A stretch of DNA of 64,000 bases, taken from the NCBI GenBank assembly GCA_965249035.1, contig CBDFKV010000005.1, positions 50,463 through 114,462 of the forward strand, in the 5' to 3' direction. The stretch comes from Candidatus Poriferihabitaceae bacterium (GTDB taxonomy: Bacteria; Pseudomonadota; Gammaproteobacteria; Arenicellales; Poriferihabitantaceae). Within the stretch, counting starts at the first letter, position 1. Each line of letters begins with the position of its first letter. A program made the position numbers and the translations under genes. Below are positions 26,595 to 52,260 of the stretch, in pieces. The notes under the pieces were generated by a model. The model was not told the origin of the DNA. It saw nothing but the letters and a program-made list of their open reading frames with translations, and searched no databases.

Positions 26595-28157
26595 ATGTAT
26601 GTATTCTCCTATCTCGAACTACACACCACTCTGATCGGCTGGATGCTGTACGACCTGCTGTGGTTGGCATTTGCTGAGTCCGGTTTGGTTGCATTGCCGT
26701 TCTTGTGGATACTCTTGCAACACTGGCGCGATGCCAGTGCCAAACAGGATTCGGTTACTCGTAACTCGCATACGGATGGCAAGGTGCTGTTTATCAAGCT
26801 GGCACTGGCGTTTCTAGTGCTGCTATTCGTTGCCTTGCCGCTAACGACTATCCAGCCCACAACGCTTAAATTTTCTCCGCAACCGTCATTCTCAAACAGA
26901 ACGCCAGCCGACGTGACTGCTGCCAGCGATACCAGTACCTATCAGCAAAATCTAGGCACGGTTGCAGCGTCTTCCGCAGCTGAAATACCGTTGTGGTGGC
27001 GCTTGGTTATCGGAGTTTCATCCGGCATTACCAATGCGGTGATTGAGAATCTGCCAGTACCAGGCGATTTGCGTGAAGCCAAGGTACTGCTGTCCTCGAA
27101 TAATATCGAGCAACCTGATCTAGCCCATGAGTACCGATCCTTTATTCAGAACTGCTATGTACCCGCCAAAAACCGATTTGAAGATTGGGCGGTGGATGGG
27201 CGGATTGATTCAAGCAGCGCTGATGCTGATGATATTGATTGGGCGGGTTCGTCCTTCCTGTTAACCATGCCTGGCGGCTATGCGGCTTGTCCTGGCGGCA
27301 GTGTCGATAGCTGCGGTAGCACCATCCATCCACCGCCAGGGGTGCGTGGCCTCGGTGCGGATGCGACCTGCGCGGATTGGTGGCGCTTGCTGGAAAATGA
27401 TATTTATGTCGCTGACAGCGCTAATGACGGTCTTTGGCAGAACATGACCGATACCGTCAACCTGCTGAGTTCATTTAGCCCTGAAAAGGTGCGCACAGGC
27501 CGAGTCAAGAACTTGCTGAACAATCTGGTTGCGGGTGAAGTGTTGGTAGAACGCAAGTATGGGCAGGCCGGTGTTCTTGATGGCATGTGGGGAATGGTAG
27601 AGGATGTTGCCGGTGCTGTAGCGGTTGGTAGTGAAGCGATATCCCGCGCTGGATTTCTGAACATTATGCGGCAGGCGGTGCCGATTATGATGGCGATCAT
27701 CCTGCTGGTGGTCTACTTCATGTTACCGGCTGCACTGGTGTTCACGCTGTTTAGCCTGGAGGCGGTGGTTGCGTTTTCGTTCGTGATCTTCAGCCTGATC
27801 TTTACCCATGCCCTACTTGCCGTTGCCAGCTGGCTCGACTACTACCTGATTGTCTCTTTGTTTGATGACTTCACCTTGATGAGCTGGTTATCGTCTGATG
27901 GCCACACACTTGGTACCGCCCAGAAACGATGGTTGATTAATATCATCGTTGGAATGCTGTACGTGGGGATGCCAATGATTTGGATTTATATGATGGGGAT
28001 AGCCGGGTTGGGCGCTGCAAGGGCTACTGGTTATATGGTTGGCAGTGTTACCGGGGATACATCGGGCGCAGGCGGTGCAGGCAAAAATACTTTGAATGCC
28101 GCAAAGAAAGGTGGTGGCGCCGCCATAGATCGAGCTAAACAGGCGTACAGTCGATGA
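26595..28157 (+). CDS. traG: TraG N-terminal-domain (mating-pair stabilisation) protein
   Basis: SYLELHTTLIGW, GLVALPF, IPLWW, F...CY.PA, DIDWAGS, CADWW, multiple C-terminal TMs. Confidence 0.92.
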   Translation: MYVFSYLELHTTLIGWMLYDLLWLAFAESGLVALPFLWILLQHWRDASAKQDSVTRNSHTDGKVLFIKLALAFLVLLFVALPLTTIQPTTLKFSPQPSFSNRTPADVTAASDTSTYQQNLGTVAASSAAEIPLWWRLVIGVSSGITNAVIENLPVPGDLREAKVLLSSNNIEQPDLAHEYRSFIQNCYVPAKNRFEDWAVDGRIDSSSADADDIDWAGSSFLLTMPGGYAACPGGSVDSCGSTIHPPPGVRGLGADATCADWWRLLENDIYVADSANDGLWQNMTDTVNLLSSFSPEKVRTGRVKNLLNNLVAGEVLVERKYGQAGVLDGMWGMVEDVAGAVAVGSEAISRAGFLNIMRQAVPIMMAIILLVVYFMLPAALVFTLFSLEAVVAFSFVIFSLIFTHALLAVASWLDYYLIVSLFDDFTLMSWLSSDGHTLGTAQKRWLINIIVGMLYVGMPMIWIYMMGIAGLGAARATGYMVGSVTGDTSGAGGAGKNTLNAAKKGGGAAIDRAKQAYSR

Positions 28158-28162
28158 GCAGG

Positions 28163-28399
28163 TTAATCGTCGTACAAATAGTCCATTTTGAGCATACGTG
28201 TGTGACGTTGCTTAGAAGTCAATTCATGGTTCGGAATTGGCAATCCGTATTCATCTTGATCACTCCAGTCGCTATCGTACTGAGTGCCTCGGTCATCCGC
28301 GTCTTCATCATCCGTCTGAGCGGTAAGCACCACCAAGCCATCCACCACCTTTTCAGCGGCGAATCGCAGGACTTTCAGGGCTGTATCGACTTTGCTCAT
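28163..28399 (-). CDS. Small acidic protein convergent on traG (entry-exclusion candidate)
   Basis: MSKVDTALKV... with Asp-rich C-half; function inferred from position only. Confidence 0.5.
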   Translation of the reverse strand: MSKVDTALKVLRFAAEKVVDGLVVLTAQTDDEDADDRGTQYDSDWSDQDEYGLPIPNHELTSKQRHTRMLKMDYLYDD

Positions 28400-28583
28400 G
28401 GGAAAAGTGTAGCACAGAAATATGAACCAAAGCAAAACCCGGATAAATCATGGTGGGAATACCTAATTACTCCAAGTTTCTATAGATATTGCACGATGAA
28501 TATACGTCCAAATCAGACCAAAAGCGAAAACGCACTCCGAACCGTACTACGTACCCAAATGAACACCCAGGAGGAAATCGATA

Positions 28584-28922
28584 GTGACTACTGAAAGCGC
28601 ACCAAATTGGCATTTTATACGAGAGAAAGAGGCAGGTTTCAGTGCATTTGAATCGCTTGTTCAAGATCCAAGAACACTGGCCTTGTTAACGCTCATCAGC
28701 ACCTATGCTGAAGGGTGCTACGAATTCACCACAATGAACAATATTGAGGGGTCGATGGATGATCAAGGCATTTTAGGACAGCGCATAGACAGGAACAAAG
28801 AAATGGTGACGTGGGAACCCTTTAACACGGTTGCAGAAGTGTTCCAGGAAAAAGGTCTACTTATCTTCGCCACCAGGGATTTGGAGATGATTCTGGATCG
28901 CATTCGCGCACTGACTCAATAA
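28584..28922 (+). CDS. Hypothetical protein
   Basis: GGAGG RBS before GTG start; 112 aa. Confidence 0.65.
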   Translation: MTTESAPNWHFIREKEAGFSAFESLVQDPRTLALLTLISTYAEGCYEFTTMNNIEGSMDDQGILGQRIDRNKEMVTWEPFNTVAEVFQEKGLLIFATRDLEMILDRIRALTQ

Positions 28923-28944
28923 ATTTCATCAGAGGACTACCAAC

Positions 28945-29964
28945 ATGGGAAAGACACCAGAACCCACAATGTTTGTAAATAAAATTATCATGGTATTTGC
29001 GCTGCTGATGTCAGTTAATGCCAACGCATTGGAACTGCTGGATTATCGGCAATATAACCCTGGCAGTTACCAAGGGATAATACCTGTCAGTTTTGATATC
29101 AAGTATAACCAGGCGGTCAGCGTGACAGTAACAGGTGCCGAAACGGTAGTGGACTATAAGTTGGTACAGACTGAACGCGGAGTAAACATCCTTTTGGATG
29201 ACGTTACGACTGCACATGATACGGGCATCAATGTTGATGTCGGGATTGATAATAAATCCAGCCAGCGCTCTTATCTGGTGTATGCAGATGTTGGTCATTT
29301 CTATCAGGCAGGTTTGAAACTCACCCCACCAGTGATACCAATTCAAACTGCGAAGATTGACCCAGCCAAGGATGTTGAAGTAACCCCGACAATTCCAAAA
29401 CCTCCAGCTCAACGGGCCATGCAATATCTCTCAGTGGAAGATCAGCTAAATGCAGAGATTGGCCGCATTAAAAATGAACCACGAACGAAGGCAAATAGTG
29501 CAGCGGTTGAGCAAGAACACAAGAAGATAGTTAACGAGCAAACAACAGAAACGAAAAGCCCCCAATCGAACACCGAGGCCGTAACGGTAGCGAAGCCAAC
29601 AAAAATTAGGACGGTGAAATACCAAACAACGAAAAAAAAGGAATTGCCTGCGGCAACGACCACAATTAGCAAAGAAAACAATCCAGCTAAACCGGTAAAG
29701 CTCGCTCAACCCCTTGTGGTTAAACCGGAAGTAGCCACCGAAAACGAGCAGGAAGTGAAAGCAAAGGTTGCGACAGAAGTCGCGCTACAACAAGCAATAG
29801 GAAAGGCAAATCAAGAATGGCTGGCACTTGAGCAATCAGCGCAGCCACAACCCGAAAAAATATACGCGGACTGGATACCGAAAATCCGTCCGTGGACAGC
29901 AACGATGGTCGAGATATTCGGCCCAGCCCGCGAAACCAACACAACAGAAGGAGTTAACCAATGA
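28945..29964 (+). CDS. Secreted/periplasmic hypothetical protein with Pro/Lys/Thr-rich linker
   Basis: Signal peptide ending ANA; low-complexity middle; RBS AGAGGA. Confidence 0.7.
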   Translation: MGKTPEPTMFVNKIIMVFALLMSVNANALELLDYRQYNPGSYQGIIPVSFDIKYNQAVSVTVTGAETVVDYKLVQTERGVNILLDDVTTAHDTGINVDVGIDNKSSQRSYLVYADVGHFYQAGLKLTPPVIPIQTAKIDPAKDVEVTPTIPKPPAQRAMQYLSVEDQLNAEIGRIKNEPRTKANSAAVEQEHKKIVNEQTTETKSPQSNTEAVTVAKPTKIRTVKYQTTKKKELPAATTTISKENNPAKPVKLAQPLVVKPEVATENEQEVKAKVATEVALQQAIGKANQEWLALEQSAQPQPEKIYADWIPKIRPWTATMVEIFGPARETNTTEGVNQ

Positions 29965-30452
29965 GTAAAGAAAACGCAGCCAACACCCAACCAGCCCCAG
30001 AATTCCAACAACTACCTTTGTTTTTTAGCTGTCTCATGAATGGCAAGGAAAAAACATTTCCAGCCGGTGCGGCAGTGTATTACCCAGAAACAAACGGGTA
30101 CACGCTGATACCAGGGTTAACGCCTCCCGTGGCCGAAAAGACCGACCTTGTAATTCGGCATGACAATAACGGAATGCCAGGACGATCTTTCTTTCTTCGG
30201 TATGTGTTCCATGAATATAACGCGGCAACGAAGCAAGCAGAAGATAAGGTAATGGATCACACAGACATCATTGCCACCTGGGACGAAGCTAACCCTTCGT
30301 TATTACGCCTATCACCGCTTCCGCCGATGCCCATTCCAAGAGTAATGCGCCGCGACGGAAAATTGGAGTGGAGAGTACACCTGATACCCGTCCAACCGAA
30401 GAAGGCAATCAAGACCAGCGTTAAGATTGTGAACAAGCCCAAAAAGGATTAG
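29961..30452 (+). CDS. Hypothetical protein directly upstream of the giant protein gene
   Basis: AGGAG RBS and ATGA overlap. Confidence 0.7.
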   Translation: MSKENAANTQPAPEFQQLPLFFSCLMNGKEKTFPAGAAVYYPETNGYTLIPGLTPPVAEKTDLVIRHDNNGMPGRSFFLRYVFHEYNAATKQAEDKVMDHTDIIATWDEANPSLLRLSPLPPMPIPRVMRRDGKLEWRVHLIPVQPKKAIKTSVKIVNKPKKD

Positions 30453-30456
30453 AAAA

Positions 30457-33400
30457 ATGCCAAACAACCAACTATTAGGAATTACTAAAAAAAGTGGCGA
30501 TTTATCTCTAGTCGCTGAAATATCAATGTTCGATGCCGCCGATGTTGCGCCGGTAGCTGAAGCCACGCCGACGATTCCACCACCGCCCGAACCAACCACT
30601 GAGGAAGTTCAAGCTCCTGAAGAAGAAACAAGCAGCTCAGAATCAGCCGAAGCCGAAGTGCCAGCGTCGGAACCGGATAGTGGCGACGACTCAAGCGCAG
30701 CAACCACTGAAGAAGTGGCTGCAGACGGGGAGCAAGAACCCGAACCAGTGATCCCAACTTCTACAGAACCAGCGGCAACGGCTACTGATGAAGCCGTAGA
30801 AAGTGCTGACAGCGCGGAAGAAGACGCTACCGCCAATGTTGAGGAAACCGTCACCGAAGCTGAAGCCGTCGTAGAAACAGAAGCGGAAGCTACTGAAGAA
30901 GTAGCCGAAGTATTGCCCGTTGATAATTCTGAATCTGAGCAGGGAGGAAGCGACAACACGGAAGAAAAGACGCAGACCGAAACGGACGAAATAAAGAATG
31001 AAGATCAAACCCAGTCACCTGCCTCAGAAGCAGATACGGCGGCGCAAGAAGCGATAGTCGAAGAAAGGCCCACCTTGGCGCACATTCTAACCCCTAGCTT
31101 AGTATCCCAAGAAATTGGGCATTTAGTGCGCCCAGCAAATCCTATATTGATAGGCGACACGACCAATATATTTAATACTGGTGTGTACGGCAGACCAACA
31201 GGAGGAGAGTGGGCCGATATGTTCCCAACATATAGTTCGGTTGGGCTAGAACTTATCGAAGAGGCTCAAGTCGAAACAGCCAGCGCAAGCGAAGCTGTAA
31301 GCATTGTTAACTTTGACGCCTTGAATGATGCAGCCAGTAGCGATGCTCCAATAGCTGGCTTTATTGATGCGGACTTAATGGAAATGCTGGTGGCCCCCGT
31401 GCCATTAAACGCTATTCCACAAACAACCTCTGCCTTACCACTATTAGTTGATGAACAAACTATAGCGGCGCTGGAACCCAATACTGAGAAAGTAGAGCTG
31501 GTGGTTATTAATGACGATGGCCATAGAGACATCACCGAGATAGTCGAGGGTGAGCTGGAAGCGGGGCGAGAAGTTCTGATTATTAAGCCGAATCAAGACG
31601 GGATAGCCGTCATTAATGATTACCTCGACGAAAGCAACAAACAATATGACGCCGTGATTATTTACAGCCACGGGATCAACAATCAAATCATTCTTGGAGA
31701 TTACACGCTCACTAATGAAAATGTAGCAGACAGCGGGATTGATGGCTTTAGCGAACACTTGTCGGCAGGCGCGGACATCATCTTCGCGAGTTGTAACGCT
31801 GCGGAAAGCGATTCAGGCAAGGCTATGATCGACCAAATAGCCGAGCTAACCGGCGCAGATGTAGGCGCGTCAAGCGACTCAACCGGCAACTCTGAAACCG
31901 GCGATTGGGATTTAGAGTACCAGACGGGAGCGCTGGAAACAGACTTTGCTGAAGAAGTAAAGGCGAACTATACCGGCACTGATTTCGATAATGTATTACA
32001 GACGTGGGAGTGGACAGACCCACAAGGGCTAGTACATCAATACAAGTTTATTTTACATACTGGTAGCGATTATCAGTCATGGGCGGCTGCGGAAACCGAC
32101 GCCCATGCGTTTACCAGTGCCGAGTCTTCTGATTGGTATTTAGCAACATTCACCAGCCAAGCCGAGTACGACGCATACCTGGCGCTAATAAACGGCACTA
32201 ACGAAGGCCCAATAGACCAAACGAATTGGGCGGGAGCTTGGTTCGGCGCTGTTAGTGTTGCTGACGGGACAAATAATTACTACTGGGGTGACGACCAATC
32301 ACCTGAATACCTTGATGCAATAGCGAACAACAATCAGAATTGGGATCCGAACGACTCAAGCCCCGCTGGATCAAGCCCAAGCGGGGGCGGTGAAGCCGGT
32401 GGAAACGACTACGGCGCGGTCATATTGAATGACGTTCACAATAGTGGTGGAAGTCCTGCCGACTCTCCCGAACGCGAAGGGTTATGGCATACGGTGCCTC
32501 TCGACGGCTCGCATTCAGACAGCAATCCCAACCCAGGGGTATTCCAATCAGATGCGTACATTATCGAAACAATTTTGGCGGCTGAGCCACCAGTCATTGA
32601 TCCCGACCCCACCACACCTAACAACCTAGAAGGGTGTTTGGCGGTTTGGTACGAAGGTGACGGAGCGATAGCGATTGCCCCAAATATTTCAATCACCGAT
32701 CCAGACAGCACAAATTTCACACAGTTAGCCTTGTCGTTTACTGCTGGATGGGAAAGCACCGACGTTGTATCGTGGAGCGCGGGGGCAGTACCCGCCGGAG
32801 TATCAGTGTCGTTAGCTACCGCAGCGGATGGAACCCCAACAGGACTAACCGTAACCGGATCAGCTAGTGTCGCGGCGTACAACACACTTGCTCAATCCAT
32901 CACATTCGACTCAACAACGCAAGATGCGACAGAAGTAGATCGAGATATCACTTGGATGGTTTTGGACGATACCATAGCGATACTTGGAGGCCCACAAGCG
33001 AGCACAGTTGGAACATCCTCAGTCTGTGTCGATGCAGTGCCAGAACCCCCGGTAATCACGCCACCGACGTATGAGATACCTCCGGTACTGAGTGATCCTG
33101 ACGATCCAAACAGCCCGTTAGTAGGCGGCTGTACTGCGGTTTACACCGAGAATGGTGATCCCGTGCTATTGGCAGCGGATATCAATTTCACTGATATTGA
33201 TTCGGATAATCTGACAATGGCCACCATCGACATGACCGGCGCTTGGGAAGCAACTGACGTAGTTGCATGGGATGCAGCGGTAGTACCCGCAGGTGTGACC
33301 GTAACGCTGGCCACAGCAGCAGACGGTACGCCGACAGGCATTGTGATTGATGGCGAGGCCACCAAGGACGAGTATGTCGCAATCGCCCAAAGCCTTAACT

Positions 33401-36057
33401 ATATGTCCACCTCAGAAAATCCCAGCGAAGAACCTCGTGAGCTGACTTGGGAAATCTGGGATGACACGCCAGACGAGACTAATGCGGCGCATGAAACCTA
33501 TTTAGAGGAAGGCCCGTTGCCTTCTAACATTGTCGTTACCTCAGTCTGTGTTGATGCAGTGCCAGAACCCCCTGTAATCACGCCACCGACGTTTGAGCTT
33601 CCTCCGGTATTAAGTGATCCAAACGACCCGGACAGTCCGCTTGTAGGCGGCTGTACTGCGGTTTACACCGAGAACGGTGATCCCGTATTGCTGGCTGCAG
33701 ATATCAACTTCACCGATATCGATTCGGAAAACCTGACAATGGCCACCATCGACATGACCGGCGCTTGGGAAGCTACTGATGTAGTCGCGTGGGATACAGC
33801 GGTAGTACCTGCAGGGGTGACGGTGACGTTAGCAACAGCAGCGGATGGCACACCGACAGGCATTGTGATTGATGGCGAGGCCACCAAGGCCGAGTATGTC
33901 GCAATCGCCCAAAGCCTTAACTATATGTCCACCTCAGAAAATCCCAGCGAAGAACCTCGTGAGCTTACTTGGGAAATTTGGGACGATACACCGGATCAGG
34001 ATAACTACGCGCATGAAAATGCGCTGGAAGAAGGCCCATTACCTTCTAACATTGTAGTTACCTCAGTCTGTGTCGATGCGGTGCCGGATGCTCCGGTAAT
34101 CACGCCACCGACGTATGAGATTCCTCCGGTGCTGAGTGATCCTGACGATCCAAACAGCCCGTTAGTAGGCGGCTGTACTGCGGTTTACACCGAGAATGGT
34201 GATCCCGTGCTATTGGCAGCGGATATCAATTTCACTGATATTGATTCTGACAATCTAACGATGGCCACCATCGACATGACCGGCGCTTGGGAAGCTACTG
34301 ATGTAGTCGCGTGGGATACAGCGGTAGTACCTGCAGGGGTGACGGTGACGTTAGCAACAGCAGCGGATGGCACACCGACAGGTATCGTTATTGATGGCGA
34401 GGCCACCAAGGCCGAGTACGTGGCCATAGCGCAAAGCCTGAACTATATGTCCACGTCCGAAGAACCAAGCGAAGACCCAAGAGAGTTGACTTGGGAAATC
34501 TGGGACGACACGCCGGTCGAGGACAATTACGCGCATGAGAATGCGCTGGAAGAAGGCCCGTTGCCTTCTAACATTGTCGTTACCTCAGTTTGTGTGGACG
34601 CGGTGCCGGATGCGCCGGTAATCGTGAATGAATATCCACCAGAATTGAATGATCCTGACGACCCATTTCCAACATACCCGAACAATCCAGATTGTCCGTG
34701 TGACGTTATATTTGTAGAGAACGGCGAAGCTGTGTTGCTAATGCCAGCAATTGATTTCAGTGATTTGGATTCGGAATTCTTAACTTCTGCAACCATTGAT
34801 TTTAGTTCTCCATTAACAGAAGATTTCAGCGTCACAGGGGTTCAGGGATGGGAGCCAACAGATATAGTTACATGGGACGCCGCAGTAGTACCTGCAGGAG
34901 TGACCGTAACACTGGCAACGGCTGCGGACGGCACACCGACCGGGATAGTCATTGATGGCGAAGCCACACTAGCTGAATACGAAGCACTCTTTCAATCAAT
35001 TAGTTATGTGACTGAATCTGAGCGGCCAAGTGAGGGTGAGCGCGTGATAACCGTGCAAATCTGGGACGATACCCCGGTTGAGGACAATTACGCCTTCGAG
35101 AACGCACTGGAAGAAGGCCCACTGTCTTCTAATATTATTGTGATTAATCTGTGCGTGGATGCAGTACCAGACGCGCCCGATGTTGAACTAAATCCGAATA
35201 ACCTGCCATGTACTGAAATAGTTACAGGGCAAGGCCATGTCGATATGTTCCCGCAAGCGACGATTACCGATATTGATTCGGACAACCTCACCGCGATGAA
35301 TTTGGAGTTCACAGTCAACAATGGTGATGGTATTCGGTGGGACGATGCGCTGGTGCCGGAAGGCGTTAGCGTCCATGAAGCGTTTGATCCTGACGGTGTT
35401 TACTACGTCTACTTCACAGGCACAGCGCCGGTAGAAGAATACGAGGCATTGCTGCAATCGTTCCAGGTGCAGTCGAACTTTGTCGAAGGTACTCAGAGCC
35501 ACGAAATAGGTGTATCTGTGACCGTATTCGACGACACACCAGTAGAAGAAAACGGCTGCTACGAACAGTTTGGTGAAAATGGTGGAGTTACCTCTGCAGA
35601 GTTAGGGGCTTTAACAGACCATGACACCTTCTGCGCTCATGTTTACACACCGCCACCGCCACCATCTCCTGAACATCCGGCATCGTTCACAATGATTCCG
35701 ATTCCAGAAGAGGAATTATTCTTGCGGCATGTAGAGCCGGAAGAGATTCTGAGAAAGACAGATTATTCAATCCTGGAAGGTGATACCCCGGCGCACATCT
35801 TTATCCATGCGTTAGTCAACGGACAAGATGCAATCCTGAATGCTCAGTATGACGAAAACCATTTTGTGGATCAGCCCTTGCAACGAACATTGACGGATGG
35901 GCAGGCGCTATCAGCCTCTTTGCAAAATAGTATTGACGGGTTAGCCGCATCAGGCGTAAGCCCCGAAGGTATTGCCGAAGGGATGCGGAATGTTGACCCC
36001 GCGATTATCGGAGAACTTGACCAGGCGATGCGCTTAGAACACGCAATAGCTATCTAA
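30457..36057 (+). CDS. Giant acidic surface/adhesin-like protein: LEPRxLL-like N-terminal motif, DUF4347, C-type-lectin-like region, tandem Ig/cadherin-like repeats
   Basis: LVAEISMFDA; IIYSHG..LG..L..ADIIFASCN...IAELTGADVGASSDSTG...GDWDLE (DUF4347); SWAAAE..YLATFTSQAE..AWFG (CTL-like); repeats AVYTENGDPV..DIDS.NLT.ATI. Confidence 0.88.
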   Translation: MPNNQLLGITKKSGDLSLVAEISMFDAADVAPVAEATPTIPPPPEPTTEEVQAPEEETSSSESAEAEVPASEPDSGDDSSAATTEEVAADGEQEPEPVIPTSTEPAATATDEAVESADSAEEDATANVEETVTEAEAVVETEAEATEEVAEVLPVDNSESEQGGSDNTEEKTQTETDEIKNEDQTQSPASEADTAAQEAIVEERPTLAHILTPSLVSQEIGHLVRPANPILIGDTTNIFNTGVYGRPTGGEWADMFPTYSSVGLELIEEAQVETASASEAVSIVNFDALNDAASSDAPIAGFIDADLMEMLVAPVPLNAIPQTTSALPLLVDEQTIAALEPNTEKVELVVINDDGHRDITEIVEGELEAGREVLIIKPNQDGIAVINDYLDESNKQYDAVIIYSHGINNQIILGDYTLTNENVADSGIDGFSEHLSAGADIIFASCNAAESDSGKAMIDQIAELTGADVGASSDSTGNSETGDWDLEYQTGALETDFAEEVKANYTGTDFDNVLQTWEWTDPQGLVHQYKFILHTGSDYQSWAAAETDAHAFTSAESSDWYLATFTSQAEYDAYLALINGTNEGPIDQTNWAGAWFGAVSVADGTNNYYWGDDQSPEYLDAIANNNQNWDPNDSSPAGSSPSGGGEAGGNDYGAVILNDVHNSGGSPADSPEREGLWHTVPLDGSHSDSNPNPGVFQSDAYIIETILAAEPPVIDPDPTTPNNLEGCLAVWYEGDGAIAIAPNISITDPDSTNFTQLALSFTAGWESTDVVSWSAGAVPAGVSVSLATAADGTPTGLTVTGSASVAAYNTLAQSITFDSTTQDATEVDRDITWMVLDDTIAILGGPQASTVGTSSVCVDAVPEPPVITPPTYEIPPVLSDPDDPNSPLVGGCTAVYTENGDPVLLAADINFTDIDSDNLTMATIDMTGAWEATDVVAWDAAVVPAGVTVTLATAADGTPTGIVIDGEATKDEYVAIAQSLNYMSTSENPSEEPRELTWEIWDDTPDETNAAHETYLEEGPLPSNIVVTSVCVDAVPEPPVITPPTFELPPVLSDPNDPDSPLVGGCTAVYTENGDPVLLAADINFTDIDSENLTMATIDMTGAWEATDVVAWDTAVVPAGVTVTLATAADGTPTGIVIDGEATKAEYVAIAQSLNYMSTSENPSEEPRELTWEIWDDTPDQDNYAHENALEEGPLPSNIVVTSVCVDAVPDAPVITPPTYEIPPVLSDPDDPNSPLVGGCTAVYTENGDPVLLAADINFTDIDSDNLTMATIDMTGAWEATDVVAWDTAVVPAGVTVTLATAADGTPTGIVIDGEATKAEYVAIAQSLNYMSTSEEPSEDPRELTWEIWDDTPVEDNYAHENALEEGPLPSNIVVTSVCVDAVPDAPVIVNEYPPELNDPDDPFPTYPNNPDCPCDVIFVENGEAVLLMPAIDFSDLDSEFLTSATIDFSSPLTEDFSVTGVQGWEPTDIVTWDAAVVPAGVTVTLATAADGTPTGIVIDGEATLAEYEALFQSISYVTESERPSEGERVITVQIWDDTPVEDNYAFENALEEGPLSSNIIVINLCVDAVPDAPDVELNPNNLPCTEIVTGQGHVDMFPQATITDIDSDNLTAMNLEFTVNNGDGIRWDDALVPEGVSVHEAFDPDGVYYVYFTGTAPVEEYEALLQSFQVQSNFVEGTQSHEIGVSVTVFDDTPVEENGCYEQFGENGGVTSAELGALTDHDTFCAHVYTPPPPPSPEHPASFTMIPIPEEELFLRHVEPEEILRKTDYSILEGDTPAHIFIHALVNGQDAILNAQYDENHFVDQPLQRTLTDGQALSASLQNSIDGLAASGVSPEGIAEGMRNVDPAIIGELDQAMRLEHAIAI
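33019..34584 (+). repeat. Three near-identical 522-bp (174-aa) intragenic tandem repeats, with degenerate copies on both sides
   Basis: TCAGT(C/T)TGTGT (SVCV) recurs at 33019, 33541, 34063 and 34585. Confidence 0.93.
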
Positions 36058-36099
36058 AACCAGTAAACCAGATTAAATATTTTTAAAGGAGTAAACATT

Positions 36100-37623
36100 A
36101 TGAAAAAGATACTACAACCATTGGCAACACTGTCACTTGCTGGCGCAATAGCTGCAACAACAGCTTGTTCGCCAAGTCTGCAACCAAAAATCAACTCAGA
36201 CGATCTTTATAAAGCAAATAAAGCGAAGTATGAGGAAATTTATAACTCCCTGCCAACCGGCATAATTGTAGACGAGGGAAAGGCGGTGGCCTTGACCTTG
36301 TGGCGCAATCTTGACATCAAAGTGAAAGAAATAGAAAAGCTCGTTGAAGGCTCTCAATCAGCCGAGACTTTCCTAAAACACGCTCCATCTTTGATCTATA
36401 CCCATGATAAGCGTGAGCGTGACAAGCTGGCGCTTTCAACCAGCGAACGCTTGAATGACGATGGCACGGTAGAAGAAATCGATGGTGTAGATACGAATCC
36501 CTCGTATTCCAGCGATCTTGATTCTGAGACCAAAGACTTAACGCTACAAGTCGATTTGCTCAATCTCTGGCAATATTACTATGAATCGAAGATTCATAAG
36601 GCCAATGTAGAAATCCGCGCTCGCAACCGCGACAAAGCGGCACAAAACGTCACAGTGGACGCTATTGAGAATTTCAAGTTGGCACAGATAGCGCAAACAC
36701 TTAAAGCCGACATCGAGCGCTTAACAGCCACTACCACCCGCATTAAAAATGGTAGTTGTTCAGTCATTGGCACTGCAACTGAAGTAAAAGATGCACTATT
36801 ACGTCAATGCAAGGAAATTGTTGGTACGTCCCGCGACCTACCAGGCATTATGAACCAGCTCAATGAGGCCAGAATTAACTTCAATGCGTTGATAACGGCG
36901 CATCCGACTACAGAGATGACGCTAGCGCCGATCAATATGCAATCTATGCCTCAAATCAACAAGGATTTAGATGAATTGGTTGACATTGCTTTGTATAACT
37001 CGACCGAGTTGGAAATTGAGCGATTTAAGTACATTATTGCTAAGAATGAGCAGTACAAAGCATGGACAGACATCTTACCGTCGTTAACGATTGGCGTGTC
37101 TCGCAAAGAAGACGACAACCGATTTTTGGTTAACGATAACTGGGAAGAAGAATTTGCCACCCTGAATTTGAATTTCATTCAAAAGATGGTTAGCGCACCA
37201 TATCGCGCCAGAACAGCCAAGTACAAGGCGCTCGCCGCAGACGATGTTCGTAGCAAGGCTGCAATTGTAACCCTGGCAACCAAAGTAGCTTTGTCAGTTG
37301 ATGCCTACAATACGTCGATTGATAAGTGGGAAAACAGTAATCAACTAGCGTTGATATCAAAAGACGAATTCCATAAGGCCGACGCTAAAAAGCAATCGGG
37401 CAATGGAACAGAATTTGACCAAGCGAATGCTGAAACTCAGATGTTATTCCATCAGCTTCAGTCAATGCTCGACTACGCAAATATGTGGGGAGCTGCAGCA
37501 CGATTGTACGGAGCACTCGGTATGCGAATCATTCCAACCGATCAGCTTTACACAGATTACAGCGTTACCGATCTGGCAAAGGCGTTTAATGAGCAGTTAG
37601 CTTCTTTAGGGATTAAGGGCTAA
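36100..37623 (+). CDS. TolC-family outer-membrane channel (lipoprotein)
   Basis: Lipobox ATTA-C; ALYNSTELE, LPSLTIG; helical repeats; operon context. Confidence 0.85.
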   Translation: MKKILQPLATLSLAGAIAATTACSPSLQPKINSDDLYKANKAKYEEIYNSLPTGIIVDEGKAVALTLWRNLDIKVKEIEKLVEGSQSAETFLKHAPSLIYTHDKRERDKLALSTSERLNDDGTVEEIDGVDTNPSYSSDLDSETKDLTLQVDLLNLWQYYYESKIHKANVEIRARNRDKAAQNVTVDAIENFKLAQIAQTLKADIERLTATTTRIKNGSCSVIGTATEVKDALLRQCKEIVGTSRDLPGIMNQLNEARINFNALITAHPTTEMTLAPINMQSMPQINKDLDELVDIALYNSTELEIERFKYIIAKNEQYKAWTDILPSLTIGVSRKEDDNRFLVNDNWEEEFATLNLNFIQKMVSAPYRARTAKYKALAADDVRSKAAIVTLATKVALSVDAYNTSIDKWENSNQLALISKDEFHKADAKKQSGNGTEFDQANAETQMLFHQLQSMLDYANMWGAAARLYGALGMRIIPTDQLYTDYSVTDLAKAFNEQLASLGIKG

Positions 37624-38399
37624 TGAAGCGTCTAATCGGTTTAGTGATGGCCGTGTGCGCAGCCAGCGCGCACGGTCAAGAGGAGGTAGCCGGACAGTCA
37701 CTAGGCAGCCTATCAGCAATACAACAAACGGTAATGTCCGCGCCAACCAGTGGCGTTATTAACAGAATGGAAATATCGGCTTTATCTACAGCAGTAAAGC
37801 AAGGCGATACAATCGCAAAGCTAGACTGTAGTGTATTGGATGCAGAGCTGCGGGCAGAAAACGCAAAAGCCAGCAAAGCCTCGCACTCAGCAAAACAAGC
37901 GCAGATTGAGTACGATTATGTGACTAAAGACGGCCAGCACATGCCCGCTATCTCAAAAAATGATCTTGCATCAAGCAAAAACGAGTCTTCGGCTGCGTGG
38001 GCAAGCGCAAATGCGAAGAAGGCCGCACTTGCTCAGTGTACGATAAAGGCTCCGTATGATGGAGTAGTAGCCAACATTTACGCCCGTACAGGTCAGTACG
38101 TTAATGCTGGCGATCCAATTGTGGAGCTGGTGGATAACAGTCAGCTAATCGCAGAATTTAGGCCACCGGCATGGACGTGGGATAGGTTCCAAACAGGAGA
38201 ATTAGCGGACATCAACATCTTGCCGGAATCAACGGCTTCACGTAACGCGGTTGTAAAAGTAATTGAACGCGGCGGGTCAATGGACGCCAGCGGGCAATTC
38301 ACAGTTCGAGCCGTCATTCAAGACGGGGCAGACGGTTTAGTAACAGGGATGCCATTCCTGATAAGCCACGAGCAGCAAGAAGTCACGCAAACGCAATAA
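37623..38399 (+). CDS. Membrane-fusion (HlyD/RND adaptor) protein
   Basis: Split lipoyl motifs SAPTSGVI..VKQGDTIAKLDC and CTIKAPYDGVV..GQYVNAGDPIVEL. Confidence 0.9.
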   Translation: MKRLIGLVMAVCAASAHGQEEVAGQSLGSLSAIQQTVMSAPTSGVINRMEISALSTAVKQGDTIAKLDCSVLDAELRAENAKASKASHSAKQAQIEYDYVTKDGQHMPAISKNDLASSKNESSAAWASANAKKAALAQCTIKAPYDGVVANIYARTGQYVNAGDPIVELVDNSQLIAEFRPPAWTWDRFQTGELADINILPESTASRNAVVKVIERGGSMDASGQFTVRAVIQDGADGLVTGMPFLISHEQQEVTQTQ

Positions 38400-38413
38400 C
38401 AGCAAAATAGGGA

Positions 38414-39619
38414 GTGGAGTTGAACATGGGAAAAGACGAAACGGCGCAGATCGATTCGCGCCATCAAATCGGGATATTGCAAAAAACGCTGTATGCGTGG
38501 AAGACCACAGCAAGCACGTTTTCAGTCCACGCCCCTCGAAGAGCAAAGATGGAAGCCCTTATCGAGTTAGTGGAACAATCGCTAGGGTCTGAAATTGAGT
38601 GCTATGTGGCCAAAGGACGTAAGGTTGCTTATTGCCTACCGGGCAGGGAGATAAATAGCGACCATAAAAAATTAGCTGCGGTGCCGGATTCGTATGCCGA
38701 TGAAGACAATGCGATATTCGTGCGAAGAGTGCCGGTAACAGATCAAGAAGCGTTGATAATTGTCAATAACTTCGAGATCGAGGGAGAGGCAATACAGGAG
38801 CGCGTGAAAGCCTATGTTGAAGCGCTGAACATCACACCAAGGAAAGTGCCAGTAAAAGGCATCATGGCCGCAGTGGCGATTACAGCGCTGCTTTTCGTGC
38901 CGATTAAGTTGCCTACAACAGGAGAGGCAGAGGCGGTAGGCGAGCATCGCATGAATATCACGGCACTCAACGCCGGGATTGTGACGCCATTATCCGAACC
39001 GGGTATGGTAGCCAAAGGCCAACCGATTGCTAAAATAGAGTCAAACGAGCTAGATCGACAGATTGAACTATTGAGCGCCCGGATCGCGGAGCTACGTTCC
39101 CAATCAGCACAACCCGCCGAACAAGGAACTAATGTCTACACCAGGCTTGCGGCAATTCATTCCAGTGAAGCGGAAAAAGCAGGATTAGAAAAGCAACGAC
39201 AGGCCAATATTATTGGCGCTCCAATGGATGGAATGTTGGCTTGGGAAAGCGTTAAAAAACTCCGATATGCAAATGCCGGTGATTTGGTCGGAAGTACTGA
39301 TGCCCAGGAGCAAACTTTATTAGAGGTGCGAGTTGCGGCGAAAGATATCCGGCCACAACAGAACCAGCAGGGCGTGTTCTACCGGCAAGACGCGATAGAT
39401 AACGAGATGATCAATGGGTTCATCGAAAACACGCCGACAGTGATAGACGTTAGCAAGGGCCGGTCGGATTACTTGGTGAATTTTCGGCTGGAAAAGCCGG
39501 TACTAGTTGGCGATACCGGCATGGTTTCTTTCAATTCAGAGTACACCACTATTTTCAAAGTGTTGTTCAAAACTACTATTCTACATATCCGGTCATGGTA
39601 CAGCCTGTACTTCGATTAA
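38414..39619 (+). CDS. Second HlyD-like adaptor with N-terminal cytoplasmic domain and TM
   Basis: ALLFVPIKL, ITALNAGIV..GMVAKGQPIA, IGAPMDG. Confidence 0.78.
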   Translation: MELNMGKDETAQIDSRHQIGILQKTLYAWKTTASTFSVHAPRRAKMEALIELVEQSLGSEIECYVAKGRKVAYCLPGREINSDHKKLAAVPDSYADEDNAIFVRRVPVTDQEALIIVNNFEIEGEAIQERVKAYVEALNITPRKVPVKGIMAAVAITALLFVPIKLPTTGEAEAVGEHRMNITALNAGIVTPLSEPGMVAKGQPIAKIESNELDRQIELLSARIAELRSQSAQPAEQGTNVYTRLAAIHSSEAEKAGLEKQRQANIIGAPMDGMLAWESVKKLRYANAGDLVGSTDAQEQTLLEVRVAAKDIRPQQNQQGVFYRQDAIDNEMINGFIENTPTVIDVSKGRSDYLVNFRLEKPVLVGDTGMVSFNSEYTTIFKVLFKTTILHIRSWYSLYFD

Positions 39620-41520
39620 GACCGGGTGTCGCAATCGAGAAAGGCGACCCGACCTACCGCCAAGAAGATGGTAGCTATACCAGCCACTACCTGGTAGACC
39701 ACAGCCGCAACACCACGGTCGCTAGGTTGACCAAGCGGCAAGCTTTTGCGTTGCTTGGTCATGGAACCCTAACCGATGATGAATATGAACAGTTAAGCGC
39801 ATCGCTCAAGAAGAATCATTTACTACAGGGGCAATCTCCACCAAGCAAGACAAGCGGTAGTGTAGATCAAAAGATGCTGTTCCTCAGCATTCCAATCCCG
39901 TTCAAGCCCGACCGTTTAATAGGATCAATGAAATGGCTAGGTGCTGCGCTTTTTAACTACTACGCGCTGTCTGTGCTGGCAGTGCTAAGTATGTGCGGCA
40001 TTTTCCTGATTGCACGACAGTTCGAGTATTTCAGAACCTACACAAGCGCCACATTCTCAATAGATTATTTGTTGAGTAATGGGCTGGCTTTTGGAACGGC
40101 GTTTATTATTATTAGAGTGCTGCATGAATTAAGCCATGCGCTTGCGTGTAAAAAAGCTGGCGGTTTTGTCGAGCGCTTTGTCATTACTTTCATAGCTGGC
40201 GCTCCGCTACCATCCACAAAAATGAATTGGATGCACAAAGCCACCCGGCGACAAAAGATGATGGTTGCCGGGGCGGGAATATACATCGAGCTATGGATTG
40301 CGGCGATAGCAGCGATCATGTGGGCAATAACACCCGATGGAGCAGATAAGGCCTTGTGGCATTATCTGGCTGTGATCAACCCTATGCTAACGCTAAGTGC
40401 AAACTTGGTGCCACTAATGAAGTTTGACGGTTATCACCTATGGTCTGCAGCAACCAGGAACCCGCAGCTATATGAAATGGCGATTGAGCAATTTAGAAGC
40501 AGTGCTCATCGGCTTTTAGGGTTTTCAAGTGTCAAAGTGAATACCGGGCTGGGATATGAGCCCATATTGGCGGCATACGGGGCCGCAATTGTATTTTGGA
40601 AAGCAGTGGTGCTTCCGGGCGGCTTAATCGCAGGGATTATGATGCTATTCGAGCAAGATCGGATAGCTTATCTGTTTGTCGTTTTAGTAGCAGCGAACTT
40701 TTGGATCAAACCATTAATACGGGAAAAACGGAAAATGAAAAAATTTGCACCAGACCCAATAACGCTCATTCCTGCAGTGGCATTGGTCGGTTTAGCAATC
40801 TGGGCGATTGTACCTATGCAGCATATTGTTAAAGTCGAGGGGGCTGTACGGCACGAACAGAACAGCATTAGCGCCCTATACGACAGCGCCTATAGCTCGA
40901 TCCGACCCGCAGGAGAGGTTAGCGTAGGCGATACGGTAGCGAAGTTGTTACCTATATCCCATGAGACTGAACTTGCGGGGATAGGGTATGACAATGCCGG
41001 AGCTGACTACGATACGAACGAAAAAGCGTATTTGAAAAAGGCGCGCAAGGATACGTTCACAAAACAAGCCGCAATGCTGCAGAGCGAGGCAATCGAGCTT
41101 CAGCCAGCCGCGCAATCATCCGGGTACTGGTTGCCAGAACGAAGGCAAACAACGTACAAGGCGGGTACACCATTAGGTTCGATTATTGATGTAAGCGGAT
41201 CTAAATTAGATGTGTATATCCCTAAGCATCTCACGAAGGAAAATGAGGTTGAGGTGACGTATTACGCCAGCAATGGAGTTACGGGACGGAGCATTATCCA
41301 AAAAGCGAACAATTTAGTTGTAAGCAATGCCTTGCCAAAGTTCATGCTGGAAAAGGCGGGCGGGCCTTTCGATGGGAACAAGCCGTTGCATACGGTGCAA
41401 TTGTATAGTGCCGATATTCCCGCTCAAGCGGAATCGCAAGTATCTGTGCTAGTCAAAACACAATATTCCATCGCCGGGAAAATAACGAATCAGCTATACA
41501 ACAGGATAAAGATGCTATGA
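39595..41520 (+). CDS. Site-2 protease (peptidase M50) fused to an HlyD-like C-terminal region
   Basis: LHELSHALACKK (HExxH), VAGAGIYIEL, NLVPLMKFDGY (NxxPxxxxDG); N-terminal LRLRPG. Confidence 0.88.
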   Translation: MVQPVLRLRPGVAIEKGDPTYRQEDGSYTSHYLVDHSRNTTVARLTKRQAFALLGHGTLTDDEYEQLSASLKKNHLLQGQSPPSKTSGSVDQKMLFLSIPIPFKPDRLIGSMKWLGAALFNYYALSVLAVLSMCGIFLIARQFEYFRTYTSATFSIDYLLSNGLAFGTAFIIIRVLHELSHALACKKAGGFVERFVITFIAGAPLPSTKMNWMHKATRRQKMMVAGAGIYIELWIAAIAAIMWAITPDGADKALWHYLAVINPMLTLSANLVPLMKFDGYHLWSAATRNPQLYEMAIEQFRSSAHRLLGFSSVKVNTGLGYEPILAAYGAAIVFWKAVVLPGGLIAGIMMLFEQDRIAYLFVVLVAANFWIKPLIREKRKMKKFAPDPITLIPAVALVGLAIWAIVPMQHIVKVEGAVRHEQNSISALYDSAYSSIRPAGEVSVGDTVAKLLPISHETELAGIGYDNAGADYDTNEKAYLKKARKDTFTKQAAMLQSEAIELQPAAQSSGYWLPERRQTTYKAGTPLGSIIDVSGSKLDVYIPKHLTKENEVEVTYYASNGVTGRSIIQKANNLVVSNALPKFMLEKAGGPFDGNKPLHTVQLYSADIPAQAESQVSVLVKTQYSIAGKITNQLYNRIKML

Positions 41521-42689
41521 AAAGACACCTGCTAACAATAATAATATTGGTGCTGACTACAACGCAGCCTGTTTATGCTCGCAAACTTTCACCAGCCGCA
41601 CAAGCAGGGCTGATAAATGCAATATTTTTGGCGCTTGAAGACGAATCAGGGCCGCAGGACTGTTCTAGTCCGAAGGCCGATCTGAAGGCAGATTACGACA
41701 AAGACGGAATCGCTGACTGTGACGAGGAAAAAGGGGTTATGGGGTACATCACCAACCCTGCTAAAGCAGATACAGATGGTGATGCGCTTAATGATCGAGT
41801 GGAGCAAACGATACTGGCCAAGTACGGCACAAACCCACAGCACAAAGATATTTTAATTGAGTATGACTGGTTTGTTGGAGCCTATGGCCAAACCACAGTT
41901 AATGGCGAAATAGTCCCGTGTGAGACAAGTATGCAACTACAAGGCACAGACGCGGCAGAAATCATCCAAATGTTTGCGGCTTCCCCGGTAAAAAATATCG
42001 ACGGGAAGACCGGCATTAACTTAGTGCTGGACTATGGCCAAGGTGGTGCGTTAGTGGGCGGTAATGCGATAGCAGACGAGGACGGAGCGCCGGGAGGTGG
42101 CTTAGGCTCAACACAGTATCTTGAGCAGAGAAAGGCCAATTTCAGCGCAGCAAGGGAACCATATTTTCATTATATCCTTGGAACATTAGTTTACTCGATG
42201 AGCACTGGCCAACTAGGGAAAACCCAAGTTGGGTACTCGGATACGATAATCTCGCCTAGATGTAATAACACATCAAAACCAGGCTATACCGCAAAATTAT
42301 TTGTTCATGAGTTTGGCCATCAGCTAGGGCTGCGCCACGGAGGTAATAACGACTGTAACAACAAGCCCAACTACAACTCAACGATGAATTACCGATACGC
42401 AACCAGCGGCTTGGATACAAATTGTGATGGCATAGCTGACGGCTTGACAATGGGATACTCGGATGGAAAGCGCAGAGTGCTAAATGAAACGCTTCTGAAT
42501 GAATACTCCGGCATGTGTGGTACCCCGCTCGACCTTAATGGCGACCAGGTGATCAGCAACACAATTAAAGCGGACGTGAACAATCAAGAACCCATATACG
42601 CTCAAATTAAGTACTGTGGTGGACAGTACACAGAGCTTCGAGATCACAATGACTGGGCGTCATTAAATTACGTAATTAAACACCTTTAA
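41517..42689 (+). CDS. Secreted zinc metalloprotease (metzincin-like) with Ca-binding DxDxDG motifs
   Basis: Signal peptide; DYDKDGIADCDE, DTDGDALND; HEFGHQLGLRH; Met-turn STMNY. Confidence 0.85.
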   Translation: MKRHLLTIIILVLTTTQPVYARKLSPAAQAGLINAIFLALEDESGPQDCSSPKADLKADYDKDGIADCDEEKGVMGYITNPAKADTDGDALNDRVEQTILAKYGTNPQHKDILIEYDWFVGAYGQTTVNGEIVPCETSMQLQGTDAAEIIQMFAASPVKNIDGKTGINLVLDYGQGGALVGGNAIADEDGAPGGGLGSTQYLEQRKANFSAAREPYFHYILGTLVYSMSTGQLGKTQVGYSDTIISPRCNNTSKPGYTAKLFVHEFGHQLGLRHGGNNDCNNKPNYNSTMNYRYATSGLDTNCDGIADGLTMGYSDGKRRVLNETLLNEYSGMCGTPLDLNGDQVISNTIKADVNNQEPIYAQIKYCGGQYTELRDHNDWASLNYVIKHL

Positions 42690-42708: not shown

Positions 42709-42943
42709 ATGAACACATTAATTAAGCTAGTAGAAAATTCCAGAACAGGTGTTTTTTAAACGTAAATACTCAATCGCACAAGAAATGTTCAACCGGTATT
42801 TGATGCGGCTATTCACTGTGTTATCTGACAGACAGTTGCTTGAATTTTGGACATATCGATTGATGCCAGAGACAGCAAGCTATCCAGCTAAATGGATACC
42901 TATTTATCCACAGAATGTGTGGAGAACTTTTATCGAGGATTAA
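42709..42943 (+). pseudogene. Small gene apparently frameshifted at a T6 run
   Basis: AGAGG RBS and ATG 42709 read to TAA at 42757; removing one T from 42752-42757 joins it to the 42749 frame (..TGVFKRKYS..). Confidence 0.45.
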
Positions 42944-49200: not shown

Positions 49201-49309
49201 TAATTTCTCGATGAGCACGGGGATTGCCCTATTGGTGCGTCTGAGGGATCACTAATTTTGGTGAATCTGCCCACTACAGCCAAATACAACTATGTGGGAT
49301 CGCCTGCAG

Positions 49310-49329
49310 CATAGATAGTTCTATCTATG
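49310..49329. promoter_or_regulatory. Palindrome CATAGATAG-TT-CTATCTATG upstream of the RM gene
   Basis: Perfect 9-bp arms, 65 bp before ATG 49395; abuts CTGCAG at 49304-49309. Confidence 0.45.
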
Positions 49330-49394
49330 TCAGTTCAAGTTTGTCGGGTGGCTTTCTTTATGCAGAATAGTTAAGTAGTGCTATAGTTGAAAGT

Positions 49395-51962: not shown

Positions 51963-52174
51963 TGAGGGTTAAAATCTATCCGCCCTATACCGAAAACCTA
52001 CGGAAATTACGATGAGAAGAAGAACCACCACGCAATTATGAGTAATCGCCTCTTTTGGCTGCCGATCTCGGCAGATAGCTTCTATCCCCTGATGGAGTGC
52101 AATCAAGGTATAGTTAAAATGCTGGTACCAAAAGCGGAAAGTCTTCGCGCCTTAGCGGAGACTAAATAAATAGG

Positions 52175-52260
52175 TGTTCATTTAACGGTTCGATTTCCGG
52201 GCCAGTTTAGTCCAGTTTCTATGCGGGTTTACGAGGGCATGATAAACTGTTCATTTAACG
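52175..52260 (+). repeat. Direct repeat TGTTCATTTAACG x2 upstream of a resolvase (res-site-like)
   Basis: Copies at 52175-52187 and 52248-52260. Confidence 0.6.

Follow-up and report, generated by a model that had tools for sequence, protein, structure and literature searches.

The closest described counterpart of the locus analyzed here was reported by Kamneva, Poudel and Ward (2015, PLoS One, PMC4452313), who found secondary SecA-like proteins encoded together with M50/HlyD, GAF/HlyD and HlyD/Biotin_lipoyl proteins, and in some cases also with an outer-membrane efflux protein (OEP), at a locus lacking an ABC transporter. That work suggests that SecA_DEAD acts as the ATPase and that the M50 protein may form a pore; the main-text passages on the locus name no cargo, leader or PqqD-like domain, and the supplements may list more loci. 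Here, we describe a related six-gene operon in a 64,000-nt stretch of DNA (the window; C5:50463–114462, on the 130-kb contig C5) from the genome of Candidatus Poriferihabitaceae bacterium (G000; 3.01 Mb in 7 contigs, 94% complete). The operon encodes a giant acidic protein, a TolC-like channel, two adaptors, a fusion of an M50 metalloprotease with an adaptor-like part, and a metzincin-like protease. Based on the observations below, we propose that these genes specify a leader-guided, ABC-independent tripartite exporter and processor of the TolC type, dedicated to the neighboring giant, and we put the probability of this reading at roughly 60%.

As far as the published passages go, the two loci have in common the M50/HlyD fusion, the short HlyD/Biotin_lipoyl adaptor, a second, anchored adaptor, the OEP and the lack of an ABC gene, as well as a patchy spread over Proteobacteria and the PVC phyla. 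They differ in that the secondary SecA_DEAD protein that defines the published locus is missing from both the window operon and G000, and possibly in the GAF/HlyD protein, a family with which the anchored adaptor of the window aligns from its transmembrane (TM) segment onward only. A module of this kind is thus already in print, in the passages of PMC4452313 that place it around a secondary SecA-like ATPase, and is not wholly new. Three features set the window copy apart: membership in a clade free of the SecA paralogue, a degenerate putative cargo tag, and a position on a conjugative element, shortly after traG. We found no functional follow-up on the secondary-SecA locus in the literature from 2016 onward, and no relevant literature on M50–HlyD–TolC secretion, on a site-2 protease (S2P) combined with a membrane fusion protein (MFP), or on a daptide metalloprotease. 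No export route for LEPR-XLL or DUF4347 giants was found in the literature searched; none is named in the passages of PMC13723633 that were consulted, and those of a giant-gene preprint (10.1101/2023.11.21.568195) deal with other systems.

Three further systems share part of the logic. Type I secretion systems (T1SSs; HlyB–HlyD–TolC, or LapB–LapC–LapE with LapA) likewise place an OEP and MFP-type adaptors beside a giant, acidic, repeat-rich and signal-less substrate, and imply one-step passage across the envelope. The window has the MFP and the TolC-family factor, whereas the ABC transporter, the RTX repeats and a conserved C-terminal region of the substrate are absent, and it has three adaptor-type domains instead of one. 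T1SS signals are C-terminal, whereas the candidate signal in the window is N-terminal. In the CvaAB–TolC type (colicin V), export goes together with cleavage of an N-terminal leader, carried out by a protease domain of the inner-membrane component, as we propose here; there, however, that domain is a cysteine peptidase of the C39 family, located in the cytoplasm and carried by an ABC transporter, and only small peptides are handled, whereas the window has an intramembrane M50 metalloprotease, no ABC transporter, and an 1866-residue protein beside it. Finally, the M50 proteases and PqqD-type recognition elements that act on ribosomally synthesized and post-translationally modified peptides (RiPPs) imply the same logic of leader binding and cleavage. 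The window fusion differs from them in carrying a periplasmic adaptor domain and adjoining an OEP, and its candidate substrate is a giant, not a peptide.

Organization of the operon and its products

The six open reading frames (ORFs) lie on the + strand at 30457–42689 and form one tightly coupled operon of 12.2 kb, with spacings of 42, −1, 14, −25 and −4 nt between consecutive genes; the ORF preceding the giant gene ends 4 nt before its start codon. In order, they encode the giant cargo candidate (1866 aa; 30457–36057), a TolC-like outer-membrane factor (507 aa; 36100–37623), a short periplasmic adaptor with a signal peptide (258 aa; 37623–38399), an anchored adaptor (401 aa; 38414–39619), the PqqD-like/M50/adaptor fusion (641 aa; 39595–41520) and a secreted metzincin-like protease (390 aa; 41517–42689). 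The original prediction, made from the sequence alone, had listed the first five products in this order, and the ORFs together with Pfam and NCBIfam matches bear it out. The metzincin gene was absent from that list and is the sixth member of the operon, translationally coupled to the fusion gene. Its product has a signal peptide and a HEFGHQLGLRH motif, and its Pfam matches to Reprolysin/M10 are weak and below cut-off; it has no homologue in G030, a genome of the same family, and no counterpart at locus L004, which carries a related operon.

The M50 fusion is the sole polytopic inner-membrane protein of the operon, in keeping with the part of inner-membrane component first assigned to it. It matches Peptidase_M50 at 32.8 bits (Pfam cut-off, 27.2), and about six hydrophobic segments (aa 115–412) flank the zinc-ligand motifs HELSH (aa 177–181; 40123–40137) and NLVPLMKFDG (aa 270–279; 40402–40431), the latter supplying the third zinc ligand. 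Both motifs are intact, as had been noted, and none of H177, E178, H181, N270 and D278 varies across an alignment of 66 relatives. With HExxH and NxxPxxxxDG ligands within membrane segments, the protein belongs to the M50 family by sequence, and proteolytic activity is predicted. The best NCBIfam matches of the fusion are RiPP leader-processing M50 proteases, far below the equivalog cut-offs (NF041824, daptide HExxH protease, 97.9 bits vs 300; NF058609, YydH/LiaK, 23.6 bits vs 225).

Profile comparisons extend the assignment to both ends of the protein. A profile of the 66-member family, window included, matches MacA (9e-19), HlyD (6e-8), EmrA and MexA over positions 445–697, the M. jannaschii site-2 protease around HExxH (1.6e-4), and PqqD (3g2b) over profile positions 12–101 (E 7.4e-5); the PqqD match recurs with a 40-member mainstream profile from which the window was left out (E 6.2e-5). 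A nine-member profile of the close subfamily matches S2P 3b4r at positions 152–276 (E 5.9e-5) and EmrA (E 0.0012), and aligns with the mainstream family over columns 5–580 (571 columns; hhalign probability 100, E 1.1e-77). This match pairs the subfamily N-terminus with the segment of the mainstream profile that resembles PqqD. Accordingly annotated by transitive homology, the N-terminal cytoplasmic domain of the fusion (aa ~5–85; 39607–39849) is a candidate PqqD-like RiPP recognition element. The C-terminal part (aa 413–641; 40831–41517) is predicted from the family profiles to be a periplasmic adaptor, and HlyD_3 matches occur in 54 of the 66 relatives.

The channel protein matches Pfam OEP at 32.3 bits (cut-off, 22), and is 28% identical to its L004 counterpart (E 7.5e-55); its N-terminus ends in ...ATTAC, which looks like a lipoprotein signal and makes it a probable lipoprotein. 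The short adaptor, with N-terminus MKRLIGLVMAVCAASAHG, scores 102.3 bits with TIGR01730 (cut-off, 94.9) and matches HlyD_3 (E 3.6e-15), HlyD_D23 and Biotin_lipoyl_2 in Pfam. In the anchored adaptor, whose true start, judged from an alignment, is likely the ATG at 38426, a cytoplasmic domain of ~145 aa is followed by one TM segment (aa 146–164) and a periplasmic MFP part. It aligns with the long GAF-MFP family at an hhalign probability of 99.3%, over aa 151–397 only, that is, over the TM segment and the periplasmic part. The long adaptor of mainstream loci has a profile match to the GAF structure 3ci6 (E 2.2e-4); for the cytoplasmic domain of the window protein, an atlas gave a GAF lead of 0.84, under the tool's own threshold.

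The giant carries a DUF4347 domain at aa 350–507 (31504–31977; PF14252, E 1.1e-31, 110.2 bits vs a cut-off of 24.6; 115.8 bits in the genome search) and five to six tandem copies of a 522-nt (174-aa) repeat at 32749–35177. These direct repeats (families D1–D3) are spaced 522 nt apart and are 62–97% identical; TRF reported none on the giant because their period exceeds 500 nt. The protein is acidic (D+E, 18.6%; K+R, 1.7%), and a PDB sequence search with it gave zero matches. It had been described as free of a signal peptide and of RTX repeats, and both statements hold: no segment exceeds a hydropathy threshold that does detect the membrane segments of its neighbors, and GGxGxD repeats are absent from its sequence. 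Since only 8 in-frame codons precede its ATG (open frame, 1874 aa), no longer leader is hidden upstream.

We propose that the first 31 residues (...LVAEISMFDAADVA; 30457–30549) form a degenerate export tag. Here, S-[MY]-F-D-A-A (residues 23–28) is the longest identical island between the giants of the window and L004, in an N-terminal alignment of 23% identity, and in both proteins a Pro/Glu-rich acidic linker comes after it. As a two-sequence lead, the island resembles the second half of the canonical LEPR-XLL motif. The string LVAEISMFDA, originally read as LEPRxLL-like, is indeed present at the N-terminus of the giant and is not statistically supported as a LEPR-XLL motif. Over its last ~125 residues, the giant shows no conservation with its L004 counterpart; judging from the sequence, a cryptic C-terminal signal may nevertheless exist in the giant. 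G000 encodes a second DUF4347 protein (353 aa; C7:981828–982889; locus L002 1039–2100, minus strand), which has an ordinary Sec signal peptide and whose gene adjoins a transposase-like one; the domain is therefore not restricted to a single export route.

Recurrence of the module and its leader

A HMMER search of 1.84 billion representatives with the fusion returned 5284 homologues at E ≤ 1e-3; of these, 2662 remained at E ≤ 1e-10 and 12 at E ≤ 1e-30. Because only 12 representatives pass the last threshold, we regard the window fusion as a divergent representative within a very large family, most of whose members are 700–730 aa long. Pattern scanning confirmed relatives on species genome contigs (557) and on metagenome contigs (518), and 80 loci from each set were kept for a survey of gene neighborhoods. 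The ORFs in this survey are frames of 70 aa or more, chosen by length so as not to overlap, and were labeled by phmmer and hmmsearch with the window proteins, a nucleotide-binding domain (NBD) profile built from G000, and queries for SecA-like proteins, OEPs and long adaptors drawn from the loci.

The fusion was recovered at 79 loci on genome contigs (1 dropped) and 75 on metagenome contigs (5 dropped). In the same-strand run, ABC genes were found at none of the 79 and none of the 75 loci (0/154), SecA-like genes at 22 and 19, and OEP genes at 21 and 14, respectively. Anywhere in the flanks, the numbers were 6 and 3 for ABC genes and 24 and 21 for SecA-like genes; one flank ABC match examined by Pfam is an ABC-F protein. 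Many loci are truncated, and all counts of presence are floors. That similar clusters recur, a point made in the original prediction, is thus borne out by operons devoid of ABC genes. At L008 and L026, Pfam confirms both the SecA-like proteins (~635 aa; SecA_DEAD, PP_bind and P-loop_SecA) and the OEPs (670 aa). In searches for close relatives, none came from single-protein scanning of genome contigs or from a metagenome scan with the TolC-like alignment, and a metagenome scan with the fusion alignment yielded one further member of the close subfamily (L094, on a 3.8-kb contig).

In the relatives, large ORFs beside the fusion often start with L-E-x-R-x-L-L-S/D-A. A strict version of this leader pattern matched 38 times in 695,167 residues, and 32 of the matches lie within the first 130 aa of ORFs that are not components of the module. 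Counted by size, the leader occurs in the N-terminal 130 aa of 23/128 non-component ORFs of at least 700 aa and 9/1065 smaller ones. The LEPR-XLL model NF012209 scored above its cut-off in four of ten N-termini of neighboring giants tested, and leader-bearing giants flank the fusion across phyla. Among 201 genomes sampled from the window's order, the fusion was present in 23, NF012209 in 11 and both in 10, leaving LEPR-XLL in 1 of the 178 genomes without the fusion, in a sample whose members are kin and not independent. The leader is also carried by 47 of the 82 DUF4347 homologues of the giant; many of the leaderless ones start directly with DUF4347, several of these with RTX repeats. This suggests two N-terminal classes of DUF4347 giants, in which one head domain would be served by two export routes. 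LEPR-XLL also heads frames of 13,078 and 11,998 codons (G036:C20:7553 and G022:C17:54303), with fusion genes on the same contigs.

The SecA-less lineage and the search for a motor

Loci arranged as OEP (~500 aa), adaptor (270–370 aa), adaptor (445–480 aa) and fusion (~711 aa) are free of SecA-like genes. In all ten genomes with this layout in which housekeeping SecA was found (G000 and those of L004, L030, L050, L056, L046, L034, L059, L038 and L061), there is no second SecA_DEAD match above cut-off; the incomplete genomes of L047 and L041 gave zero SecA matches at all. Control genomes yielded extra SecA_DEAD copies, one for L008 and three for L026. The genome of L072, that of the cultured strain Neptuniibacter caesariensis MED92, which has a LEPR-XLL giant, carries one extra SecA-like copy elsewhere on the scaffold and distant from the locus, so that absence of SecA from a locus does not equal absence from the genome. 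In the L026 genome (G207, a planctomycete), the three secondary SecA-like genes (641–671 aa) accompany a 1183-aa housekeeping SecA, which would imply several parallel modules.

A FastTree phylogeny was computed for 76 fusions, 41 of them SecA-linked and 35 with long SecA-free flanks, after 54 rows with short flanks had been dropped. The window and L004 fall within a group of 10 rows, all SecA-free (support 98), and all 41 SecA-linked rows lie on the other side. IQ-TREE analysis of 42 rows, comprising those ten and 32 drawn randomly from the other 66, recovered the same group (support 99), and with L004 removed the window remained in a 9-row SecA-free set (support 96). The SecA-less loci form a group spanning several phyla, and the neighbors of its loci are unrelated housekeeping genes. 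These phylogenies support the view that the SecA-less state marks a lineage rather than decay. Because many relatives have a SecA-like motor, the lack of an ATPase is a property of the window's clade and not of the system.

In G000, ABC_tran has 64 matches, 0 of which are on contig C5, and SecA_DEAD has one, a 920-aa housekeeping frame on C7. A second SecA was not found in the genome and SecA_DEAD matches none of the window proteins, which confirms that neither an ABC nor a SecA-like gene lies nearby. Profile searches of the genome found no HlyB/PrtD-type exporter, the best score with the PrtD model TIGR01842 being 246.5 bits against a cut-off of 510.15. Two exporter-type ABC frames (627–640 aa) are present, neither with an adaptor within 6 kb, and only one of 12 adaptor/OEP-like ORFs has an ABC gene within 6 kb, namely a 227-aa MacB/LolD-like NBD on C7.

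Proposed mechanism and alternative explanations

In the exporter that we propose, the PqqD-like domain of the M50 fusion would recognize the giant in the cytoplasm by its short N-terminal tag, possibly assisted by the part of the anchored adaptor that lies on the same side of the membrane. The giant would then enter an inner-membrane assembly of the M50 membrane domain and the adaptor anchors, and pass through a periplasmic duct made up of the short adaptor, the anchored adaptor and the fusion C-terminus, docked to the TolC-like trimer. The M50 site would cleave off the tag, and the secreted metzincin may trim or release the exported giant. The truncated SecA-like ATPase of many relatives presumably drives export there; candidate energy sources in the window's clade are housekeeping SecA, the proton-motive force, or folding outside the cell. 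For this exporter, we infer the binding, threading direction, cleavage, duct stoichiometry, energy source and cargo function. Leader processing by the M50 enzyme, suggested in the original prediction, gains at the family level from the PqqD-like domain and the co-occurrence of LEPR-XLL with the fusion, and loses in that the window N-terminus fails both leader models described next.

Several points weigh against the proposal. First, the first 200 aa of the window and L004 giants give no match to NF012209 at E ≤ 1 (model cut-off, 17 bits; none in G000 or G030 as a whole), and a leader HMM built from 25 instances does not match either giant; the putative tag depends on a 6-residue island in only two proteins. 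Second, parts of the machine are assigned indirectly. The nine-member close-subfamily profile has no PqqD match at E ≤ 10, so that the PqqD-like, leader-binding character of window residues ~5–85 is suggested transitively, by way of the mainstream profile to whose PqqD-like segment the subfamily N-terminus aligns, and not directly. Pfam gives no HlyD match in the adaptor part of the window fusion, for which the assignment follows from the family profiles, and the HlyD matches of the anchored adaptor are weak (21.8 and 20.4 bits) and below cut-off. Third, the window and L004 are long branches of odd composition, which makes their clade placement provisional, and the survey used a crude ORF caller on many incomplete loci, where a SecA-free locus may conceal a copy elsewhere, as in the genome of L072. 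Fourth, no energy source was found for the machine, which is awkward for an 1866-aa substrate. Finally, the published account of the related locus (PMC4452313) terms its biological role, in the passages concerned, completely unknown.

Of the alternatives, a processing or release module survives best. Here, the M50 protein, the adaptors and the OEP would govern maturation, anchoring or release of the giant in a LapG/LapD-like manner, and translocation would take another route. M50 (S2P family) enzymes are proteases and not known channels, the operon encodes no motor, and a second, secreted protease is coupled to it. However, no other route is visible, as the giant lacks a signal peptide and the genome lacks a T1SS-type ABC/HlyD pair; three adaptor-type domains with an OEP have the architecture of a trans-envelope duct, and many relatives add a SecA-like translocation ATPase. 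On balance, we consider a module without conduit function unlikely.

Export in trans appears distinctly unlikely. Here, the giant would be moved by an ABC transporter or by housekeeping SecA/SecYEG from another part of the genome, and the operon would provide only the duct and peptidase. The genome does offer 64 ABC domains, including the two 627–640-aa exporter-type frames, and one housekeeping SecA; at 94% completeness a gene could be missing, and the SecA-like gene of L072's genome is distant from its locus. Yet the best PrtD-model score falls far short of the cut-off, neither exporter-type ABC gene has an adaptor within 6 kb, ABC genes occur in none of the 154 related operons, and the giant has no hydrophobic Sec-type signal.

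It is very improbable that the true substrate is a small leader peptide or a non-protein compound, with the giant merely a neighbor. The kinship of the fusion with RiPP-maturation proteases among its best NCBIfam matches would fit such a substrate, but in neither the window nor the genome does the leader HMM find a small ORF bearing the leader, the giant heads the operon, its pairing with the machine is kept in G030 at 23–37% identity, and leader-bearing giants flank the fusion across phyla. Least probable of all is a decaying remnant, non-functional after motor loss and leader erosion: the degenerate leader, the lack of a motor and the long branches could be taken that way, but all six frames are intact with invariant catalytic residues, the G030 copy is equally intact despite its divergence, and the SecA-less loci form a multi-phylum group.

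Genomic context

The operon directly follows conjugative transfer genes (8087–28157, +), as the original prediction had it in describing the operon as cargo next to mating genes, and the same arrangement is seen in G030. The transfer genes encode SLT, DUF2859, a TraD-type coupling protein, DUF4400, DUF2895, DUF3438, TrbI, TraC_F_IV, TraU and TraG_N, with topoisomerase III and DUF3577 further upstream. This is the type IV secretion system (T4SS) gene set of an MPF-G/ICEclc-like conjugative element. The sole TraI_2 relaxase match in G000 is on another contig, C3, and no tRNA was found in the window; the element may be either an integrative and conjugative element or a plasmid.

In G030, the same transfer genes, 40–69% identical (TraG_N, 58%), directly precede the same operon, and the giant gene starts 1.9 kb after TraG_N. 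The five machine and cargo proteins are intact there in the same position at only 23–37% identity. The secretion and cargo proteins thus diverge more than the transfer proteins, which could reflect either faster evolution or replacement at the same site. Between traG and the giant gene, the window has four ORFs at 28154–30452 (146, 112, 339 and 163 aa) with no Pfam match and no G030 counterpart.

A pattern scan with TraG_N matched G030 alone. In a class-level sample of 400 genomes, 27 had a TraG_N match, a tally in which the unpublished genomes G351 and G517 are counted but from which they contributed nothing further; TraG_N matches outside G000 numbered 30 and were at most 33% identical. None of 20 fetched 14-kb stretches downstream of TraG_N (17 genomes) contains the module, and the fusion is present in two of 40 other genomes of the window's family. 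The export module is not general to TraG_N-type elements. T4SS homologues were found in the flanks of 0/160 surveyed loci, a test that is blind to the window-type arrangement because the flanks are 10 kb long and the traG of the window ends 11.4 kb upstream of the fusion gene.

Downstream of the operon are genes for a HATPase_c_3 protein, a C5 methylase, two resolvases, a fused type IIG restriction-modification enzyme, an ArsP permease and an SNF2 helicase. The 660-aa HATPase_c_3 (MORC/GHKL-like) gene at 44983–46965 (+) converges with the C5 cytosine methyltransferase gene at 46943–47989 (−) with a 23-nt overlap, and the two may be a defense or modification pair on the element. At 48363–52889, an 855-aa single-chain enzyme, in which Eco57I/N6 methylase domains are fused to a BsuBI/PstI endonuclease and its HTH domain, lies between serine resolvases of 246 and 222 aa; the enzyme looks like a type IIG-like restriction-modification fusion in a possible invertible or mobile cassette. 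A compositional anomaly of the operon was considered and rejected (GC 0.49 vs 0.46–0.49 for the contigs). Promoter predictions were no better than shuffles (22 vs 23.8), and a terminator scan gave a single weak terminator-like site at 42907–42923. The four sequencing runs on record all derive from a single sample, and no RNA data set is listed among them.

Implications

The description that fits best is that of an accessory module of a conjugative element, the window copy being minimal, motor-less and mobile. That the exported giant is an adhesin, its most likely role, is speculation from its acidic repeat architecture, and this together with its conserved position beside the transfer genes is what suggests adhesin and mating roles. 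The aggregation substances PrgB and Asa1 of enterococcal plasmids are surface adhesins encoded by conjugative elements. The likeness is one of description, a large surface-type protein next to mating genes, and no homology is claimed; the host of the window is Gram-negative and the export apparatus is dedicated, and a role of the giant in mating aggregation is something that we infer and no more. In its fullest form, the idea would be that a motor-less secretion system on a conjugative element exports an adhesin N-terminus first, without a dedicated ATPase, to bind mating partners or host surfaces, and that the SecA-less clade is the minimal form of an as yet undescribed type of secretion system, with a private, non-LEPR leader co-evolved with its recognition domain; we regard this whole as doubtful, and offer it tentatively.

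Environmental and symbiotic bacteria commonly encode signal-less surface giants headed by LEPR-XLL or DUF4347. Should the module prove to be what exports them, known parts would come together in a new combination: TolC and adaptors, an intramembrane protease, and a leader reader of the RiPP kind. That a whole clade lacks the SecA-like ATPase brings into focus which parts make up the minimal machine and where its energy comes from, and the compact six-gene unit of 12.2 kb suits reconstitution. The window, finally, shows the module traveling on a conjugative element.

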